Shown: in pieces, positions 1-26,449 of the stretch
Layout of the letters: each line of letters starts with the position of its first letter
Numbering within the stretch: the first letter of the stretch is position 1
UHGV virus genome: UHGV-1509762
Direction: 5' to 3' (one strand)
DNA: 26,449 bases
From: a virus
The notes under the pieces: model-generated
What the model was told of the DNA's origin: nothing
The model's input: the letters and a program-made list of their open reading frames with translations, nothing else
Database searches by the model: none
Program-made: the position numbers and the translations under genes

Positions 1-40
1 TAAACCCTGTTTTCCTTGCCATAGACACCATCCCTGTCTT

Positions 41-67
41 CCCCCACATGATGTGGGGTTTTTTTTT
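41..67 (+). terminator. Rho-independent terminator-like hairpin (CCCCACAT/ATGTGGGG stem followed by a 9-T run)
   Basis: Seen directly: 8-bp GC-rich inverted repeat at 42-49/51-58 followed by TTTTTTTTT at 59-67. It lies beyond the 3' end of int, near the expected prophage/host junction. Confidence 0.5.
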
Positions 68-152
68 ATCAATCACTTACATCGGTTTCCGTAAGAAAAC
101 AGTAACTTAAGAAAACCTATAAGGGACTGGAAGGGCTACAAAGTTCTGAGAG

Positions 153-173
153 TGTGGACACTATGTGGACACT
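153..173. repeat. Tandem direct repeat TGTGGACACT x2 with 11-bp periodicity; candidate integrase arm-type binding sites
   Basis: Seen directly: TGTGGACACT at 153-162 and again at 164-173, immediately downstream of the int stop codon (186-188). Placement and helical-turn spacing are typical of arm-type Int sites in att regions; the functional call is inference. Confidence 0.45.
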
Positions 174-185
174 CAGAAGGGAAAT

Positions 186-1166
186 TTATAACGTCACTCC
201 GCCTTTTAGAGGATTCAGTGCGACGGCATTTTGCAGGTAGTCAGGCGCAAGGTGCGCATAGGCCATCGTCTGCTGAATGCTCGCATGTCCCAGAATCTGT
301 TGCAGTGCGATTATATTGCCCCCATTCATCATGAAATGGCTTGCGAATGTATGCCGCAGGATGTGGGTTGCCTGATTGGGTGGTATATCTGGCTTCACTC
401 TGCGTAAAATCCCGCAAAACTTCTCATAATCAACTTTGAATAATTTAGCGCTGGCCTCCTCTTTAACTTTTTTCTCCAGTTCCTCAGAAATCGGCACGGT
501 TCGCTTTTTACCGTTTTTGGTTTTCAGGAAGGTAACCCTGCAATTTGTAATCTGTGCTGGTTTTAGCGTGGCAACTTCCGTCCATCTTCCTCCAGTGCTC
601 AGACATAAAAGTGCGACAAGTAAGTCATCACCATCCAAAACATTTAACAGTTTTTCGATTTCTGCTTTTTCCAGGAACGTCATTTCAGGGTTGGCCTCCG
701 CCAGTGGCGGCAGTCCGTGAATTGGGTGTTGCCCGGAAAATTCATCCAATTGAATTAATTTTGTGAACATGCCGGATAATCGGTACATGTCACGGTTTAT
801 CGTTGCGGCACTGATACCATCACGTAGTCGCATGGAACGATAATCCATCAAAGCTCTTTTGCTCATCCGGCTCACTGGTATATCACCTATGCCGCTGATG
901 GTTTTGAGCAGATGATTAAACTCTTTTGTTCCATGCTCGTGGTTTTGCCCGTGATATTTCCACCAGATGTCCAGCAACTCACTCAAAGTTCTGCGATCTG
1001 CTCGCTGACCTGCCCATTCTTTCTGGCTGGCGTAGGCGATTGTGTATCGCTCAAATGCTACAGCCTCAGCTTTTCTTTCAAATTTCCTGCGGATGCGTTT
1101 TCCGTCGCGACCGCGAGGTCTAATGTCCACTTCATAGCGTCCATCATCGAGCTTCTTAATTGACAT
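186..1166 (-). CDS. int: Tyrosine site-specific integrase (P2 Int-like)
   Basis: 336-aa track ORF with tyrosine-recombinase C-terminal signature (HILRHTFASH ... LGHASIQQTMAYAHL: HxxR box and nucleophile Tyr). Start placed at the internal Met (MSIKKLDDGRYEVDIRP, as I recall the P2 Int N-terminus) because an AGAGGG ribosome-binding site sits 8 nt upstream of the ATG at 1166. Confidence 0.93.
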   Translation of the reverse strand: MSIKKLDDGRYEVDIRPRGRDGKRIRRKFERKAEAVAFERYTIAYASQKEWAGQRADRRTLSELLDIWWKYHGQNHEHGTKEFNHLLKTISGIGDIPVSRMSKRALMDYRSMRLRDGISAATINRDMYRLSGMFTKLIQLDEFSGQHPIHGLPPLAEANPEMTFLEKAEIEKLLNVLDGDDLLVALLCLSTGGRWTEVATLKPAQITNCRVTFLKTKNGKKRTVPISEELEKKVKEEASAKLFKVDYEKFCGILRRVKPDIPPNQATHILRHTFASHFMMNGGNIIALQQILGHASIQQTMAYAHLAPDYLQNAVALNPLKGGVTL

Positions 1167-1235
1167 AAGAAAGCCCTCTGACGCTGTATTCACCATCTTG
1201 GTAACAAATAGTGAAAATGTAATGTTTATAGAGTG

Positions 1236-1529
1236 TTAACCAGTCTGTTTTTCGGAGTGGTCTGATTCTGTTGGTTTTTGCCCAATGTGTGCGAGAGCCG
1301 GCGCGATCTGACCAGCTTGTGGTGACGTATCACCAGTCATTAACCAGAGCGTATATTTTTTAAATAAAGGCGTATTTGTGACTCGCATAACGATGCTGAG
1401 ACCAGGGTCTTTATGCCCACTTTCGTAATTTTTGACTGTTCCTAGAGCTATCCCGCTAATTTCGCTGAATTTCGCCTGTGTTAAGCCTTCTGCTTTCCTA
1501 ATCGCTTTCAGTTTTTCGAATGTCTGCAT
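1236..1529 (-). CDS. C: Immunity repressor (P2 C-like, helix-turn-helix)
   Basis: 97 aa with HTH segment LTQAKFSEISGIALGTVKNYESG and C-terminal SGQIAPALAH motif. Sits between int and the divergently transcribed cox, as in P2. Confidence 0.85.
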   Translation of the reverse strand: MQTFEKLKAIRKAEGLTQAKFSEISGIALGTVKNYESGHKDPGLSIVMRVTNTPLFKKYTLWLMTGDTSPQAGQIAPALAHIGQKPTESDHSEKQTG

Positions 1530-1558
1530 TTGACAGTAACCTATTGGTGACTTATATT
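1530..1558 (+). promoter_or_regulatory. Early rightward promoter (Pe-like): TTGACA, 17-bp spacer, TATATT
   Basis: Seen directly: TTGACA at 1530-1535, 17-bp spacer, TATATT at 1553-1558. It abuts the start codon of the divergent repressor gene and points toward cox (ATG at 1682). Confidence 0.6.
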
Positions 1559-1585
1559 CCCGTCAAAAGGTTGTGTATTGGTGAC
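1542..1585. promoter_or_regulatory. Direct repeats TATTGGTGAC x2 flanking the -10 element; candidate repressor operator half-sites
   Basis: Seen directly: TATTGGTGAC at 1542-1551 (inside the promoter spacer) and at 1576-1585 (just downstream of the -10). P2-type C repressors bind direct repeats flanking the -10 of Pe (established knowledge); assigning these repeats to that role is inference. Confidence 0.45.
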
Positions 1586-1601
1586 CTTTTGAGTGTGTTA
1601 G

Positions 1602-1642
1602 CCAGTCCCTAGAAAGGACAGGGGCGACCTAGAAGGGACTGG
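1602..1642. promoter_or_regulatory. Dyad CCAGTCCCT ... AGGGACTGG in the C/cox switch region; candidate Cox or regulator binding site
   Basis: Seen directly: CCAGTCCCT at 1602-1610 and its reverse complement AGGGACTGG at 1634-1642. The same 9-mer also occurs at 122-130 near the att end. Confidence 0.4.
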
Positions 1643-1681
1643 ATCTAATAAGGGTAACACGAAAGCAAAAAGGGCTAATCA

Positions 1682-1954
1682 ATGGAAGTCAATGACTATG
1701 TGATTCAGTACCCGATTGATGCGGTACATACGGTTAAGTTTGCAGAGTTACTTGGTAAGCCAGAAACGGCTGTAGTCAAGATGGTAAAAGAGAATAAATT
1801 GCCAGTTATTGAGCTTCGTGATCCAAGTAAGCCGAACGCCCGTGTCGGTGAGAAGTGGGTTTTCATTCCAGAGTTTAATCGCGCTGTACGAGAGGCGTTT
1901 TATAACCGACCAGTTGAACAGCGTGATGCATGGCTTTTGTGGATGGGGTTGTGA
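1682..1954 (+). CDS. cox: Cox-like excisionase / early-promoter repressor
   Basis: 90-aa ORF, first gene of the rightward early operon, divergent from C; size and position as in P2 (Cox is 91 aa). The segment KENKLPVIELRDPSK...GEKWVFIPEFN resembles the P2 Cox core as I recall it. Confidence 0.8.
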   Translation: MEVNDYVIQYPIDAVHTVKFAELLGKPETAVVKMVKENKLPVIELRDPSKPNARVGEKWVFIPEFNRAVREAFYNRPVEQRDAWLLWMGL

Positions 1955-1956
1955 TT

Positions 1957-2127
1957 ATGAGTGAACCGCGTTGTATTGCTCAGTTACTGCGTAACGAAAG
2001 CCCCAGGGCGATTGACTTCACCATCACCCACGGTAAGGGGCGTAAGGGAATCATTATCCGCACCAAAAAACAGAGTCCGTTAAAAAAGGCTCTGACCTTT
2101 CTGAAAAGCCGGAGGGTATGGAAATGA
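1957..2127 (+). CDS. Small basic hypothetical protein (positional equivalent of P2 orf78)
   Basis: In-frame ATG at 1957 just after the cox stop; its stop overlaps the B start as ATGA (2124-2127), suggesting translational coupling. No recognisable motif. Confidence 0.4.
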   Translation: MSEPRCIAQLLRNESPRAIDFTITHGKGRKGIIIRTKKQSPLKKALTFLKSRRVWK

Positions 2128-2624
2128 CAGTGATGACGCTCAATCTCGTTGAAAAACAGCCAGCAGCTATGCGCCGGATAATTGGTAAGCATCTGGCCGT
2201 CCCTCGCTGGCAGGAGACATGCGATTATTATAATCAGATGATGGAACGCGAACGGCTAACGGTTTGCTTCCATGCGCAGTTAAAACAGCGTCACGCAACG
2301 ATGCGTTTTGAAGAAATGAACGACGTCGAACGTGAACGGCTGGTTTGTGCAATTGATGAATTGCGTGGGGCATTCTCAAAACGCCGTCAGGTTGGCGCAA
2401 GTGAGTATGCATATATTAGTTTTTTAACAGTCAGTCAGCGTCGTACTTTATTTATGCATGCCGGATTGACTGAAAAAGAATTCAACCAGCCATACTGGCG
2501 AATTAATGAAGAATTATGTTACTGGCGTGATGCTTTATTCCGTGCATTACGTGAATTATTCAGCCTGTTTGAGTATGCACCGACAATTCTGACGTCGGTA
2601 AAACCAGAGCAATATCTGCATTAA
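2124..2624 (+). CDS. B: Replication protein B-like
   Basis: 166 aa from the ATG at 2124 (GGAGGG RBS at 2111-2116, 7-nt spacer); same length and position as P2 gpB. The track's upstream Met at 2118 is too close to the RBS. Confidence 0.7.
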   Translation: MTVMTLNLVEKQPAAMRRIIGKHLAVPRWQETCDYYNQMMERERLTVCFHAQLKQRHATMRFEEMNDVERERLVCAIDELRGAFSKRRQVGASEYAYISFLTVSQRRTLFMHAGLTEKEFNQPYWRINEELCYWRDALFRALRELFSLFEYAPTILTSVKPEQYLH

Positions 2625-2687
2625 GTAATTAACCAGAGTTTTTAACGCACTTAATCGTGCGGGGCTTCTTTTTGCCTGGAGAAAGTC

Positions 2688-2912
2688 ATGCATACAGTTT
2701 CTGAAAATCAGTGCGGTAAATACGCATTACTGCTGCAACAGGCCAGAACCGAAGCACAGGCCGACGCAGCGACGCGCTTTTCTTCTCATCTTGACGCCAT
2801 GATTCGCCACATCACAAAGGCGGAGTTATCCCGCGTGGAGATAGTCGAGCTGCTCAGTCAGGAGTCGGAAAAATTTCACAATATCGGATTGTCTCGCGGG
2901 GAGGTGCTTTGA
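2688..2912 (+). CDS. Hypothetical early protein (P2 orf80 position)
   Basis: 74-aa ORF with GGAG RBS upstream of the ATG, in the conserved cox-B-small ORFs-A early operon. Confidence 0.55.
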
Positions 2913-3214
2913 TGTCCTGTTCTCGTTCAGTTGTATTACTGAATAACGCCTTAAAAATCGCCGTTATGAAAAATGGCGATTTATCTCTTATTCAACTTGG
3001 TCTTGATAAAGAAAAACGCGAAATAACTGAGTCTGTTATCGCGATTTATCAGAACGAATTAAATCTCCTGTCTGATGTGGTCAATTTACTTGTTAAACGC
3101 GCTGTATTTCACAAGAAAATCTCCTCCGTGGATGAACTGACAAAATTAACAACAGAAATTGCCAGCTATTGCGCTGATGAATTTAAAAAACTTAACGACA
3201 AAAGGAGCTGGTAA
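2912..3214 (+). CDS. Hypothetical early protein (P2 orf81 position)
   Basis: 100 aa from the ATG at 2912 (overlapping the previous stop as TGATG; GGGAGGTG RBS at 2898-2905). The track's start at 2909 is a TTG one codon upstream. Confidence 0.55.
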   Translation: MSCSRSVVLLNNALKIAVMKNGDLSLIQLGLDKEKREITESVIAIYQNELNLLSDVVNLLVKRAVFHKKISSVDELTKLTTEIASYCADEFKKLNDKRSW

Positions 3215-5973: not shown

Positions 5974-5987
5974 CAATAATGATTGAC

Positions 5988-6018
5988 ATGCTTGATTTTG
6001 TATTCACAAATCAAGCAT
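5988..6018. repeat. Perfect 11-bp inverted repeat (ATGCTTGATTT / AAATCAAGCAT, 9-nt spacer) preceded by TTGACA; candidate operator or regulatory hairpin upstream of the methyltransferase
   Basis: Seen directly at 5988-5998 and 6008-6018, with TTGACA at 5983-5988. Lies in the gap between gene A and the methyltransferase start. Confidence 0.6.
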
Positions 6019-6084
6019 CAAGTAAACATCGATGATGAGAAAGAACAATGCTACAATCCCCACAGCATTAGAAGGAGGTTTATC

Positions 6085-7134
6085 TTGATTAAGGTTGTTG
6101 ATTTATTCTGTGGCGCGGGTGGCTTGACTCACGGTCTTCAGAAGTCGGGGCTTAATGTAGTTGCAGGTTATGATATAGATGCAGCCTGTCGATTTGCCTA
6201 TGAGACAAATAATAAATCACTCTTTGTCCAGAAAAGTGTTACAGACATTGAGGACGGCGAATTAGTTAAATATTTCGAAGGAGCGAAGGTTCGAGTTTTG
6301 GCTGGTTGTGCCCCATGCCAACCTTTTTCAAGCTATACCAATAGTGCTAAATTAGGGGTAGTACGTTCAAAAGATAAAAGATGGTCTTTGCTTTATAGCT
6401 TTGCTAAGCAAATTAAATTTGCAAAGCCAGATATTATTACAATGGAAAACGTTCCCCGAGTGGTGAATCATAAGGTTTTTAAGGACTTCATTAAGTCTCT
6501 TAAAAATGATGGCTATTTTGTTTGGTATGGGGTGGTGTTTTGTCCAGACTATGGAATGGCACAAAGTCGTTCAAGATTAGTGTTATTGGCATCAAAATAT
6601 GGAGAAATAGAAATAATTCCACCAACTCATGAGAAGAATGATTATAAAACGGTGCGAGATATAATCGGTAATCTTCCTGAAATTAGTGCCGGTGCTGTTC
6701 ACGCTGGAGATAAACTACATCGCTCTGCATCATTATCTGATATTAATATAAAAAGAATAATGGCATCAAAACCTGGTGGAACATGGCGTGATTGGCCAGA
6801 AGAGCTAAGAGCAAAATGTCATACAAAAGAAAGTGGTTCTACATATACTGCTGTATATGGGAGAATGTGTTGGGATAAACTTGGACCGACAATTACAACT
6901 CAATGTATTGGATATGGGAATGGACGCTTTGGGCACCCTGTCCAAAATAGAGCATTAAGTTTAAGAGAGGCTGCGCTATTACAGTCATTCCCAGAAAAGT
7001 ATGAGTTTTGGCCTGATGATGTAAAAATTGAAATGAGAACAGTTGCGCGTTTAATAGGTAATGCTGTTCCTGTTAGGCTTGGTGAGGTCGTAGGTGAAAC
7101 TATTTTAAAACATTTGTCAGAAATGAATATTTAA
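6085..7134 (+). CDS. DNA (cytosine-5)-methyltransferase
   Basis: C5-MTase motifs in canonical order: motif I LFCGAGG (FxGxGG), motif IV GCAPCQPFS (catalytic PCQ), motif VI ENV (ITMENVPRV), motif VIII QSRSR, motif X GNAVPV. Start set at the TTG at 6085 because a GAAGGAGG RBS lies 6 nt upstream and motif I follows within about 10 residues; the N-terminal extension of the track ORF (from 5983, also TTG) is low-complexity. Confidence 0.9.
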   Translation: MIKVVDLFCGAGGLTHGLQKSGLNVVAGYDIDAACRFAYETNNKSLFVQKSVTDIEDGELVKYFEGAKVRVLAGCAPCQPFSSYTNSAKLGVVRSKDKRWSLLYSFAKQIKFAKPDIITMENVPRVVNHKVFKDFIKSLKNDGYFVWYGVVFCPDYGMAQSRSRLVLLASKYGEIEIIPPTHEKNDYKTVRDIIGNLPEISAGAVHAGDKLHRSASLSDINIKRIMASKPGGTWRDWPEELRAKCHTKESGSTYTAVYGRMCWDKLGPTITTQCIGYGNGRFGHPVQNRALSLREAALLQSFPEKYEFWPDDVKIEMRTVARLIGNAVPVRLGEVVGETILKHLSEMNI

Positions 7135-7146
7135 AACTTATGTCAT

Positions 7147-7170
7147 CCCCCCTGTCAAAAAACAGGGGGG
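7147..7170. terminator. Hairpin between convergent genes (CCCCCCTGT / ACAGGGGGG stem, A-rich loop); likely bidirectional terminator
   Basis: Seen directly: 9-bp GC-rich inverted repeat in the 41-bp gap between the methyltransferase stop (7134) and the stop of the minus-strand ATPase gene (7176). Confidence 0.6.
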
Positions 7171-7175
7171 TATAA

Positions 7176-9134
7176 TTAGATTCCCTCAACTATTTTCATA
7201 ATTCTAGCTGCATCATTCTTTTTGTCTTGATATTCAGCATAGGCTTGTTTTGATTGCACGATTAGGTCATTATATGTCAATATTTTTCCATTGATAGAAA
7301 GTAATTGCATATTTATAAAGTGTTGGTTCTCTTGTAAATATCCAGAGCCAACCAGGAATATTACTTCTATATGCGGTATATTTCCACCTGGGCAATTTTT
7401 AGGGTTATTGGAGAACCATTGTGTCGTTGCCTGTACATATTTATTACCTTGTGCGACTAGGTTCATTATATCTGGGTGCACTTTAGGTCGTTTCATCTCA
7501 ATAATTACATGCTTGCCAGAAACGGTTTTGAAAGCGATATCAATACGAGCACCGCTAGCAGCATCAGGGTTTATCTGTTTTAGTTCCTTGGTCAATGTTT
7601 GCTCCATAACAGATGTGCCTGTGACTCTTTCCCATGAAGGATCCAATAACCATAAATGATCATATAAATACATTTGTACAGCTCTTTCAAGCTGATTTTC
7701 ATCAGTTATTTTTTGGAATTTTTCAATTACTTTAAGGCGTTGCGAAGTAATTTCATAAAACATGCTTGCTTCAATGTCATTGACAGATGCAAATACATCT
7801 TTAAAATTTTCTGATTGAAGGTTGCTTATTTTATCTAATGCATCAAGGTTGTCTTGAATTCTAAGTCTTTCAAAGGCTAATACCGTATTTTTTAATACGG
7901 TTTTTCTTGCTGCTTTTTGTTCTTCCTCATTACCAGAAAAACGGAATGTGTTTACTCGTCCAATTAACTTTTCGGCACTTTCTCTCTCATGTTTTTTGAG
8001 AGAATTCAGCCATTCACTTACTATTGGAGTATTGCTTTTAACTTCATTTACTCCTTTTTCGCGTCTCCATTTATCCCAATCTTTATCGATTAGTTGTAGC
8101 GTTCTTTCCAGAAAACCTTTAAGTACAGGGTATCTTGGATCATTCTGTTGTAGTTTTTGACGAGAAGATGTTGCCATATCAGGCTTTTCGTTATCATCTA
8201 GAAAATCGGCGACTATTTCACCGACCAGATAATTGGTGAATACTTTAGCACTTCCAAATTCTAATAATATGTCCTCCTCAAAAACACGTCCGTGAGAGAT
8301 TACAGTAATGCTGTTGTTAGATATTTCAGGGTCTTTCTTTAACTGTGATGGCTTAACTACACTGCCAATGTACCCACTAACTTTTACATCTTTTCCTTCA
8401 AAGGTAATAGTATTTGGTAATATGTTTTTTTGTGTGATGTTTGTGCAGGATTTTATCCTTTCAGGGTCGGATTCGCCAAATTCCCAAATGAACTCGAGAT
8501 CTGAAAGGAAATCTCTATCTGCCGGTGTAATATCGGTCCCATTAATTTTAACTGTAAAGTTATGGTTGGGGCCAATAATGCTAAATCGACGAGCTATTCG
8601 CTTTCTGAGGTAAGTTTGAGTCCTATCAATGGCTTTTTTTAGTTCAAATAATTTAATTGTAGTGCCGTAAGCAAGATTTTCGGGTATTTCAAGGGAGTCA
8701 GCAATATAGTTTTTTGATTCTTTGATACTTTGCTGTAAATCTTTGACATCTACCTCAAAGGCCTGAGGCTGTTCCCCCTTTTTGTACGAATAAACTTGGA
8801 TTTTATTGGCAAGTGAAAACATGGCAAGCTTACCAATACCTTTTCTGCCCATAACTTGACGTTTTAGATGATCGCTTTTGGCTCTTCCATGTTCCCTGCG
8901 AGCATAACCGACTTTTAGGAACTTATTAATAATGTCATCTTTAGACATGCCATGACCATCATCTTTAATGATGACCTCTCCTTTCTCAACATCAAGTGTA
9001 ATTTCTACATTTTGAGCATCTGCATCCCATGCATTTGATATAATCTCAGTTAGTACCGCGGGAGTATTGGAATAGAGACTCATCCCTAGGTGATTTAGCA
9101 CATTCAAATCAATTTTAATTTCGAAATCTGACAT
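7176..9134 (-). CDS. GHKL-family (MORC/MutL/Hsp90-like) ATPase with a C-terminal PD-(D/E)xK-like nuclease motif; putative ATP-dependent restriction or defence nuclease
   Basis: N-terminus carries the Bergerat-fold motifs: N box EIISNAWDADA (E30, N34, D37), G1 box IKDDGHGM (DxGxG), G2 box GRKGIGK. The C-terminal segment ARIDIAFKTVSGKHVIIEMKRPK has a D ... ExK arrangement (D532, E546, K548; DNA 7491-7541) consistent with a PD-(D/E)xK nuclease core. AAGGAA RBS precedes the ATG at 9134. The gene is AT-rich relative to the phage backbone. Confidence 0.85.
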   Translation of the reverse strand: MSDFEIKIDLNVLNHLGMSLYSNTPAVLTEIISNAWDADAQNVEITLDVEKGEVIIKDDGHGMSKDDIINKFLKVGYARREHGRAKSDHLKRQVMGRKGIGKLAMFSLANKIQVYSYKKGEQPQAFEVDVKDLQQSIKESKNYIADSLEIPENLAYGTTIKLFELKKAIDRTQTYLRKRIARRFSIIGPNHNFTVKINGTDITPADRDFLSDLEFIWEFGESDPERIKSCTNITQKNILPNTITFEGKDVKVSGYIGSVVKPSQLKKDPEISNNSITVISHGRVFEEDILLEFGSAKVFTNYLVGEIVADFLDDNEKPDMATSSRQKLQQNDPRYPVLKGFLERTLQLIDKDWDKWRREKGVNEVKSNTPIVSEWLNSLKKHERESAEKLIGRVNTFRFSGNEEEQKAARKTVLKNTVLAFERLRIQDNLDALDKISNLQSENFKDVFASVNDIEASMFYEITSQRLKVIEKFQKITDENQLERAVQMYLYDHLWLLDPSWERVTGTSVMEQTLTKELKQINPDAASGARIDIAFKTVSGKHVIIEMKRPKVHPDIMNLVAQGNKYVQATTQWFSNNPKNCPGGNIPHIEVIFLVGSGYLQENQHFINMQLLSINGKILTYNDLIVQSKQAYAEYQDKKNDAARIMKIVEGI

Positions 9135-23998: not shown

Positions 23999-24526
23999 AT
24001 GCAGCATTTAAAAAATATTACGGCGGGTAATCCAAAAACGGTTGAACAATATCAATTGACAAAAGACTTTGATGTTGTCTGGTTTTTTTCAGAAGATGGT
24101 AAGAACTGGTACGAAGAACAAAAGTATTTTGCTGATGACACGCTAAAAATAGCGTACGACAAAGATAATATCATCCGCTATGTGGAAAAGGATGTGACAG
24201 CTATCAGACCGGATGGATTAAGTGTTGTTGAAGTGGCGGATATTACTGCTAACCGACGGGCGGACATTTCAGGGAACTGGATGTTTAAGGACGGCAAAGT
24301 GATTAAACGCATTTATACGGCAGAGGAATTGCTGCAGCAGGCAGAAAACCGGAAAGCCAGACTTCTTGCAGATGCTGAATCCGTGATTTTGCCGCTGGAG
24401 CGCGCGGTCAGACTGAACATGGCAACAGATGAGGAGCGTAGCCGACTGGATGCATGGGAGCGTTACAGCGTTCTGGTCAGTCGTGTGGATCCTGCAAATC
24501 CTGAATGGCCGGAAATGCCGCAATAA
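23999..24526 (+). CDS. G: Tail fibre assembly chaperone (P2 gpG-like)
   Basis: 175 aa immediately downstream of H; same length and position as P2 G. Confidence 0.85.
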
Positions 24527-25593: not shown

Positions 25594-26449
25594 GGATTTG
25601 CCCCTATATTTCCAGACATCTGTTATCACTTAACCCATTACAAGCCCGCTGCCGCAGATATTCCCGTGGCGAGCGATAACCCAGCGCACTATGCGGATGC
25701 CATTCGTTATAATGCTCGAACGCCTCTGCAAGGTTCTTTGCTGCCGTTAACCCGTCTGGTTTGGGCATGATACTGATGTAGTCACGCTTTATCGTTTTCA
25801 CGAAGCTCTCTGCTATTCCGTTACTCTCCGGACTCCGCACCGCCGTGTTCTTCGGTTCAAGTCCCAACATCCGGGCGAACTGGCGTGTTTCATTAGCCCG
25901 GTAGCATGAACCATTATCCGTCAGCCACTCCAGTGGAGACGACGGAAGATCGTTGCCGAAGCGGCGTTCCACCGCTCCCAGCATGACGTCCTGTACTGTT
26001 TCACTGTTGAAGCCGCCGGTAGTGACCGCCCAGTGCAGTGCCTCACGATCACAGCAGTCCAGCGCGAACGTGACACGCAGTCTCTCTCCGTTATCACAGC
26101 AGAACTCGAACCCGTCAGAGCACCATCGCTGATTGCTTTCTTTCACGGCCACTCTGCCTGTATGTGCCCGTTTCGATGGCGGTACAGCAGGTTTTCGCTC
26201 AAGCAACAGCGCATTCTGGCGCATGATCCGGTAAACACGTTTGGCATTGATCGCAGGCATACCATCAAGTTCTGTTTGTCTGCGAAGCAGCGCCCATACC
26301 CGACGATAACCATACGTGGGCAGCTCTCCGATAACATGGTGTATACGGAGAAGCACATCCGTATCATCAGTGTGACGACTGCGGCGGCCATCCATCCAGT
26401 CATCGGTTCGTCTGAGAATGACGTGCAACTGCGCACGCGACACCCGGAG
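25594..26449 (-). mobile_element. IS2 insertion sequence (IS3 family), partial, inverted orientation, truncated by the window end
   Basis: The terminal sequence TGGATTTGCCCCTATATTTCCAGACATCTGTTATCACTTAA at 25594-25634 is the reverse complement of the IS2 right inverted repeat as I recall it; followed by the IS2 orfB (InsD) coding sequence on the minus strand. Confidence 0.9.
25604..26449 (-). CDS. insD: IS2 transposase OrfB (InsD), 5' end outside the window
   Basis: 279-aa track ORF is recognisable as E. coli IS2 InsD over its whole length ([29 protein letters not shown] ... [33 protein letters not shown]); the true N-terminus and orfA lie beyond 26449. Confidence 0.92.

Follow-up and report, generated by a model that had tools for sequence, protein, structure and literature searches.

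Left attachment junction of a very probable WΦ-like prophage at the cpxP terminator of Escherichia coli

The DNA analysed here (UHGV virus genome UHGV-1509762, 26,449 bp, called the window throughout) very probably begins, at positions 1-185, with the left prophage junction attL (B-O-P') of a WΦ-like phage of the P2 family inserted between cpxP and fieF. The WΦ-type left junction after E. coli cpxP is an already characterised, ordinary attachment site, and in this respect the finding is known biology; a prophage "Wphi1 (P2)" is entered at cpxP-fieF in the genome paper of E. coli W (PMC3032704). At window positions 24-1300 the identity with coliphage WΦ and phages closely related to it (Peduovirus, P2 family) is 99.5-99.9%, the value for WΦ itself being 99.5%. 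The gene order of lysogens among the complete E. coli genomes is cpxP, then int-C-cox followed by P2-like early and late genes, D and ogr, and finally fieF, and both in lysogens and in K-12 the cpxP coding sequence ends just before base 1 of the window. All 5426 of the 5426 complete E. coli genomes match part of positions 1-185; attL is present in 792 of them, attR in 786 and an uninterrupted attB in 4591.

A preliminary description of this DNA had taken the 185 bp beyond the int stop as one arm of an attP-derived prophage junction. The int open reading frame does occupy 186-1196 on the minus strand (annotated coding sequence 186-1166), and the proposed junction is borne out and can be named as attL, with arm sites that match those of P2 and a core at the cpxP terminator. 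Our observations concern sequence features, the limits of the core, both junctions, the identity of the P' arm with that of P2, conservation, and the segregation of alleles at positions 51 and 59; from these we infer the binding of Int, IHF and Cox in this phage and the exact overlap region. The features are collected in Table 1.

Table 1. Features of the left prophage junction and adjoining phage genes (window coordinates)
Feature	Position	Strand	Basis or remark
cpxP 3' UTR, CpxQ-yielding region	1-67	+	cpxP stop codon directly precedes base 1
Inverted repeat AGACA (23-27) / TGTCT (35-39) with 7-bp spacer CCATCCC (28-34)	23-39		candidate core-type Int sites and putative overlap
Common core	24-70		same in attP, attB, attL and attR except for natural SNPs at 51 and 59
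cpxP/CpxQ intrinsic terminator	42-67	+	stem 42-49/51-58, then T-run 59-67
Candidate IHF site	67-79	+	perfect match to consensus WATCAANNNNTTR; core/P' boundary
Direct repeat TAAGAAAAC, two copies (92-100, 108-116)	92-116	+	in the segment corresponding to the P2 Cox-footprinted interval; putative function
Candidate Cox (excisionase) site CTATAAGGGACTGG	117-130	+	third copy of the C-cox intergenic repeat
P' arm-type Int sites, TGTGGACACT at 153-162 and 164-173	153-173	+	identity with P2 'Int, P' arm', consensus, conservation
int, heterobivalent P2/WΦ-type tyrosine integrase	186-1166	-	Pfam Int_N and Phage_integrase; annotated Int in WΦ
C immunity repressor gene	1236-1529	-	Pfam HTH_3; annotated C in WΦ
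Pe-Pc switch repeats CTAGAAAGGACAGG (1609-1622) and CTAGAAGGGACTGG (1629-1642)	1609-1642	+	Cox operator region
cox, bifunctional repressor/excisionase gene	1682-1954	+	Pfam Phage_Cox, E = 9e-24; annotated Cox

The common core and the hairpin at the end of cpxP

The core was defined by lining up the attL of the window, the attR of one lysogen with an almost identical prophage, the attP of three free phages and two empty attB sites. Alignment with prophage-free strains, one of the checks proposed at the outset, gave an empty attB in E. coli that matches window 1-70, and free phage genomes match from position 24 onward, so that the common core is the 47 bp from 24 to 70, with the sequence GACACCATCCCTGTCTTCCCCCACATGATGTGGGG(G/T)TTTTTTTTATC. 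Searching for the repeated core also located the other end of the prophage: a second copy lies about 32.36 kb away, beside fieF and outside the window. It was placed in strain CFSAN061771, whose prophage shows a single mismatch to the window as far as base 25,594 and whose second core copy starts at window-equivalent 32,385, which puts attR about 6 kb past the window end. The counterpart P arm, ATGTGGACgctATGTGGACA, precedes the core in the attP of WΦ and in the attR of five lysogens, again outside the window, and is invariant; an exact-pattern scan of species-representative genomes for the junction of P arm and core gave no match.

At 25,595 the window leaves the near-identical prophages of CFSAN061771 and EECO1006 and enters an insertion sequence with an open reading frame (25604-26443, minus strand) carrying HTH_21 and rve transposase domains. 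Its end sequence resembles that of IS2; the window ends inside the element, some 6 kb before attR. A decayed prophage of about 16 kb occupies the same cpxP-fieF site in E. coli UID2404240040 (locus L012), where both attL and attR cores and int are intact and the portal, replication, sheath and baseplate genes are truncated.

The hairpin noted at 41-67 in the preliminary description was recovered both by a terminator scan and by RNA folding. The scan of positions 1-1700 reported a single site, on the plus strand, with a stem at 42-58 (seven pairs, five of them G-C, loop of three) followed by TTTTTTTTTA, and nothing terminator-like on the minus strand; the fold gave the same 42-58 stem at -11.4 kcal/mol. 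Since the T-run follows the stem on the plus strand only, the hairpin would end transcription arriving from the left, from cpxP, and not that of int. A G+C-rich stem-loop with a U-run, as in rho-independent terminators, is found for cpxP (plus strand) and is missing for int (minus strand), and when the int 3' region including the arm repeats was folded as a possible 3' hairpin of the int mRNA the result was not significant (z = -0.86). Prophage-free genomes carry the hairpin with the same flanks as the 3' end of cpxP. The element described as lying downstream of int is in this sense a real terminator, but one that faces away from int. The suggestion that the core lies at or near the terminator of a host gene holds as well, the gene being cpxP and the hairpin lying wholly within the 47-bp core.

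The 3' UTR of cpxP yields CpxQ, a 58-nt Hfq-dependent sRNA which is an RNase E product and covers almost the whole UTR (PMC6755755, PMC9438474, PMC4817254). The region from the cpxP stop to the terminator is found here in the corresponding position, and its segment 12-40 is invariant at 28 of 29 positions over 11 attL sequences from nine genera. The assignment to CpxQ rests on position and on the literature (PMC6755755, PMC9438474), and we infer a 5' end at about window position 9-10. The hairpin differs among the same 11 sequences, being invariant at 6 of its 18 stem positions, and the stem changes are compensatory (CCCCACAT/ATGTGGGG, CCCCTCAT/ATGAGGGG, CCCGCC/GGCGGG), as is expected where it is the RNA structure that is conserved.

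An Rfam search gave no plus-strand family for the region, and Rfam seems to be without a plus-strand CpxQ family. The only match was to Hrs1 (RF02628, 'Hfq-regulated sRNA 1') on the minus strand of window 1-66, at 48.1 bits compared with a gathering score of 56.4; a minus-strand match to the same model also occurs at locus L005, 1495-1567. The Hrs1 model opens with an A-run and then a hairpin, and the family seems to represent CpxQ in reverse complement.

At position 59 the window has T, which gives a terminator of the G4T9 type, and WΦ, two other free phages and attR have G (G5T8). The G-to-T change loses one G-C pair and weakens the predicted fold by about 3 kcal/mol, from -17.4 to -14.4 kcal/mol. 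T59 is shared by the four listed lysogens that match window 1-1300 exactly, two of which were read directly.

The position of strand exchange

Natural polymorphism narrows the crossover to positions 24-50 without experiment. Alleles at 51 and 59 were counted by queries with 99-nt haplotypes. All phage attP examined have A at position 51, where K-12 and many other hosts have C; in strain 98-3133 attL carries A51 and attR carries C51. The attL haplotype with C51 finds no exact match over its full length, its best 60 matches each carrying one mismatch; for the attR haplotype with C51 at least 60 matches are exact, and the same genomes occur among these. Position 51 accordingly comes from the phage in attL and from the host in attR, and the exchange lies to its left; as the attR-C51 lysogens may stem from few integration events, these counts make the exclusion of 51 from the overlap probable rather than proven. 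Position 59 segregates in the same manner. T59 stands in the attL of CFSAN061771 and EECO1006, which differ in host flanks and FieF alleles, and their attR has G59; empty sites with the CFSAN-type flank have G59 in about 241 genomes and T59 in one. This distribution marks T59 as the phage allele. The segregation of 51 and 59 led us to reject a crossover to the right of 59. Taken from sequence comparison, strand exchange probably occurs to the left of 51, within 24-50; no polymorphism was found within 24-50 among the sequences compared. The preliminary description had held that the crossover could not be placed without the other junction; the core is now set at 24-70, and exchange probably takes place to the left of 51.

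The overlap region is most likely the spacer 28-34, on the basis of conservation and geometry. It lies in the segment 12-40 that keeps its sequence while the hairpins differ, and it is flanked by the AGACA/TGTCT repeat, which is at the same time stem-loop 1 of the CpxQ fold. An overlap at 28-34 would also account for the asymmetry of the identity block, which reaches 4 bp leftward of the spacer and 36 bp rightward, the latter just sufficing for CpxQ and its terminator to be restored by the phage. If exchange takes place in 28-34, attL from there to 70 would be phage DNA.

The competing placement puts exchange at the centre of the terminator palindrome (about 47-53), with the halves of the hairpin stem as core-type Int sites. 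It has in its favour that CCCCCACAT-G-ATGTGGGGG is a perfect inverted repeat and that its centre is 103 bp from the first P' repeat, compared with 102 bp in P2. However, position 51 would then sit inside the overlap and C51 would be expected about equally often in attL and attR, whereas no best-ranked attL carried it and at least 60 attR did; moreover, the hairpin sequence is poorly kept among related integrases of the same locus (6/18 invariant positions against 28/29 for 12-40). We therefore regard this placement as unlikely. The arm-to-core distances do not discriminate, for they fit both models equally: a crossover at about 31 gives a P arm distance of 63 bp (62 bp in P2), and one at about 50 gives the P' arm distance just mentioned.

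The P' arm, the segment towards the core and the phage genes

The tandem repeat at 153-173, described as having one-helical-turn spacing, consists of two exact TGTGGACACT copies 11 bp apart from start to start. Over both strands of the 26,449-bp window its 8-mer TGTGGACA is confined to 153-160 and 164-171, 0.72 occurrences being expected by chance. The P' arm of the P2 reference genome, TGTGGACACTgTGTGGACACT, and the window sequence, TGTGGACACTaTGTGGACACT, are identical at 20 of 21 positions with the same 11-bp phasing, and the repeat fits the published P2-type arm consensus tgTGGaCa (PMC3448106; Nilsson et al.). By this likeness to P2, the pair is taken as the binding site of the arm-binding domain of the integrase, which agrees with the earlier proposal of arm-type sites. 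Conservation follows the same limits: among four prophages at the cpxP site window 150-178 is invariant at 28 of 29 positions and the adjoining 85-149 at 36 of 65. Two TGTGGACA-like 8-mers exactly 11 bp apart also lie beside related int genes at 20 of 32 loci, taken from species-representative genomes of other genera. The cpxP site of Pseudocitrobacter vendiensis (locus L028) has a rearranged P' arm, with the arm 8-mers inverted (GTCCACActGTCCACA) and farther from int and one palindromic copy, GTCCACATGTGGAC, close to int.

The junction has the parts of a P2-type attachment site: at least two direct tgTGGaCa repeats on the int-proximal side, a second arm-repeat pair across the core (the P arm ATGTGGACgctATGTGGACA), a core of 47 bp common to attP, attB, attL and attR, and an adjacent tyrosine integrase with a P2-type N-terminal arm-binding domain. 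The Int of the window is 52% identical to P2 Int overall and 83% (35/42) in the N-terminal arm-binding segment, a pattern consistent with arm sites being recognised alike and cores differently. Within GRYEVDIR, the spacing of Y, D and R is that of the P2-type discriminators (PMC3448106).

A regulatory reading of the same DNA, with the hairpin as int terminator and the repeat as an operator for the C repressor or Cox, is highly improbable. Hairpin and repeat do both lie just past the int stop, P2 Cox does bind attP, and there is a Cox-like motif nearby at 117-130; but the T-run lies on the strand opposite to int, the hairpin is the cpxP 3' end in prophage-free genomes, and the WΦ Cox repeat differs in sequence from the tandem repeat. 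Furthermore P2 and WΦ are heteroimmune and differ in what their C and Cox recognise, yet the repeat is common to them at 20/21 positions, and what P2 and the WΦ-type phage also have in common is the Int N-terminal domain. That the 10-bp tandem repeat is a functionless chance or slippage duplication is hardly credible, for two TGTGGACA per window are not extreme by themselves (at least two in 14 of 100 shuffles), but this pair is spaced at 11 bp, identical to the footprint-annotated P2 site, kept while its flanks diverge, mirrored by the P-arm pair and recurrent in other genera.

The segment between the core and the arm-type sites carries candidate sites for IHF and Cox (67-150), named from sequence matches. 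The IHF consensus has two matches in the whole window, about one being expected by chance, and TCAANNNNTTA is kept at the position of 67-79 in most genera. The Cox candidate at 117-130 has one mismatch to CTAGAAGGGACTGG, compared with two for the copy at 1609-1622 and none for that at 1629-1642, and heteroimmune prophages at the same site have the motif altered in both the arm and the switch region. P2 Cox has its footprint between core and P' arm (P2 RefSeq features), and for WΦ Cox the recognition sequence is reported, by secondary citation, as a direct repeat of 12 nt within Pe-Pc (PMC5009727).

Two further observations concern the phage genes. A direct repeat TATTGGTGAC, at about 1542-1551 and at 1577-1586, overlaps a promoter-like site (1530-1558) by the C gene and is probably the operator pair of the C repressor, of the WΦ immunity type. 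In the variable locus that comes after the replication gene a C-5 cytosine methyltransferase (5983-7134, plus strand) is followed on the minus strand, at 7176-9134, by a 652-aa HATPase_c_3 protein for which the RefSeq annotation is a BbrUII/HgiDII family restriction enzyme; the cargo at 5983-9134 looks like a prophage-borne restriction-modification pair.

Mechanism, related systems and CpxQ as an integration target

The nearest relative is the attP/attL of WΦ at cpxP-fieF, which has the same 47-bp core, P' arm, int, C and cox genes and chromosomal site. The window differs from WΦ by the G-to-T change at 59 and a few further SNPs, and in its cargo, with the methyltransferase/restriction pair and the insertion sequence at its right end. 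P2 has the same order of ogr terminator, P arm, (IHF), core, Cox region, P' arm and int; the protein_bind features of its attP (NC_001895) are the P arm (Int) at 24293-24320, IHF at 24324-24357, the core (Int) at 24356-24383, Cox at 24399-24472 and the P' arm (Int) at 24470-24496. In contrast to the window, the P2 core is 27 bp long and lies at locI, and host site and Cox recognition sequence also differ; the P' arm is 13 bp past the int stop here and overlaps the int 3' end in P2, and the two arms are about 20 bp farther apart here. The sites of lambda-type heterobivalent integrases likewise combine arm-type and core-type sites with accessory bending proteins, but the arm consensus found here is unrelated to that of lambda.

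The contacts between proteins and DNA in the scheme that follows are modelled on P2, for which Int binding to the arm repeats and the need for these in recombination are known from the protein_bind features and the literature; the sequence features and allele segregation that underlie the scheme were observed here. The N-terminal domain of Int would bind the two TGTGGACACT sites, one helical turn apart, and its core-binding and catalytic domains would act on the 47-bp core that attP and the bacterial site have in common. For excision, bending of 67-150 by Cox and possibly IHF would bring arm-bound Int to the core, by analogy with P2, and strand exchange between Int-bound attL and attR would take place near 28-34. 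The integrative intasome would be assembled on these sites in attP and, in addition, on the P arm with its IHF site. Because the phage core carries a copy of the terminator, integration rebuilds an intact 3' end of cpxP/CpxQ in attL, at least the 3' half of the terminator being supplied by the phage in the lysogen.

Integration at the 3' ends of tRNA, tmRNA and sRNA genes offers a parallel, since there too the block of identity begins at the crossover and reaches as far as the RNA gene does at its 3' side, and the gene is rebuilt. The candidate crossover in a 7-nt loop with a 5-bp inverted repeat resembles an anticodon stem-loop; unlike the tRNA-type targets, the target here is CpxQ, an sRNA derived from an mRNA 3' UTR. 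We put forward, tentatively and as somewhat short of an even chance, that integrases of the WΦ lineage recombine inside the CpxQ gene at stem-loop 1 (AGACA-CCATCCC-TGTCT), in a manner akin to the use of tRNA anticodon loops, that the 3' part of CpxQ and the cpxP terminator of lysogens are phage DNA, and that phage-borne variants could alter termination or CpxQ. The open-access papers searched contained no link between CpxQ and prophage integration. The overlap of the attachment site with the CpxQ gene, by which lysogens would carry and express a chimeric, partly phage-encoded CpxQ and terminator, is only a mildly new angle.

The chief value of the analysis lies in annotation: the left prophage boundary is fixed, with the core at 24-70 and phage-only DNA from 71, and the hairpin passes from int to the host gene. 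Should the proposal on CpxQ be true, every lysogen would have phage DNA as the 3' part of CpxQ and as cpxP terminator; lysogens make up about 15% of the complete genomes of E. coli, and relatives occur in at least eight other genera. Phage-borne variants, among them the G4T9 terminator, could then affect how cpxP transcription ends or how CpxQ and Hfq behave in lysogens.
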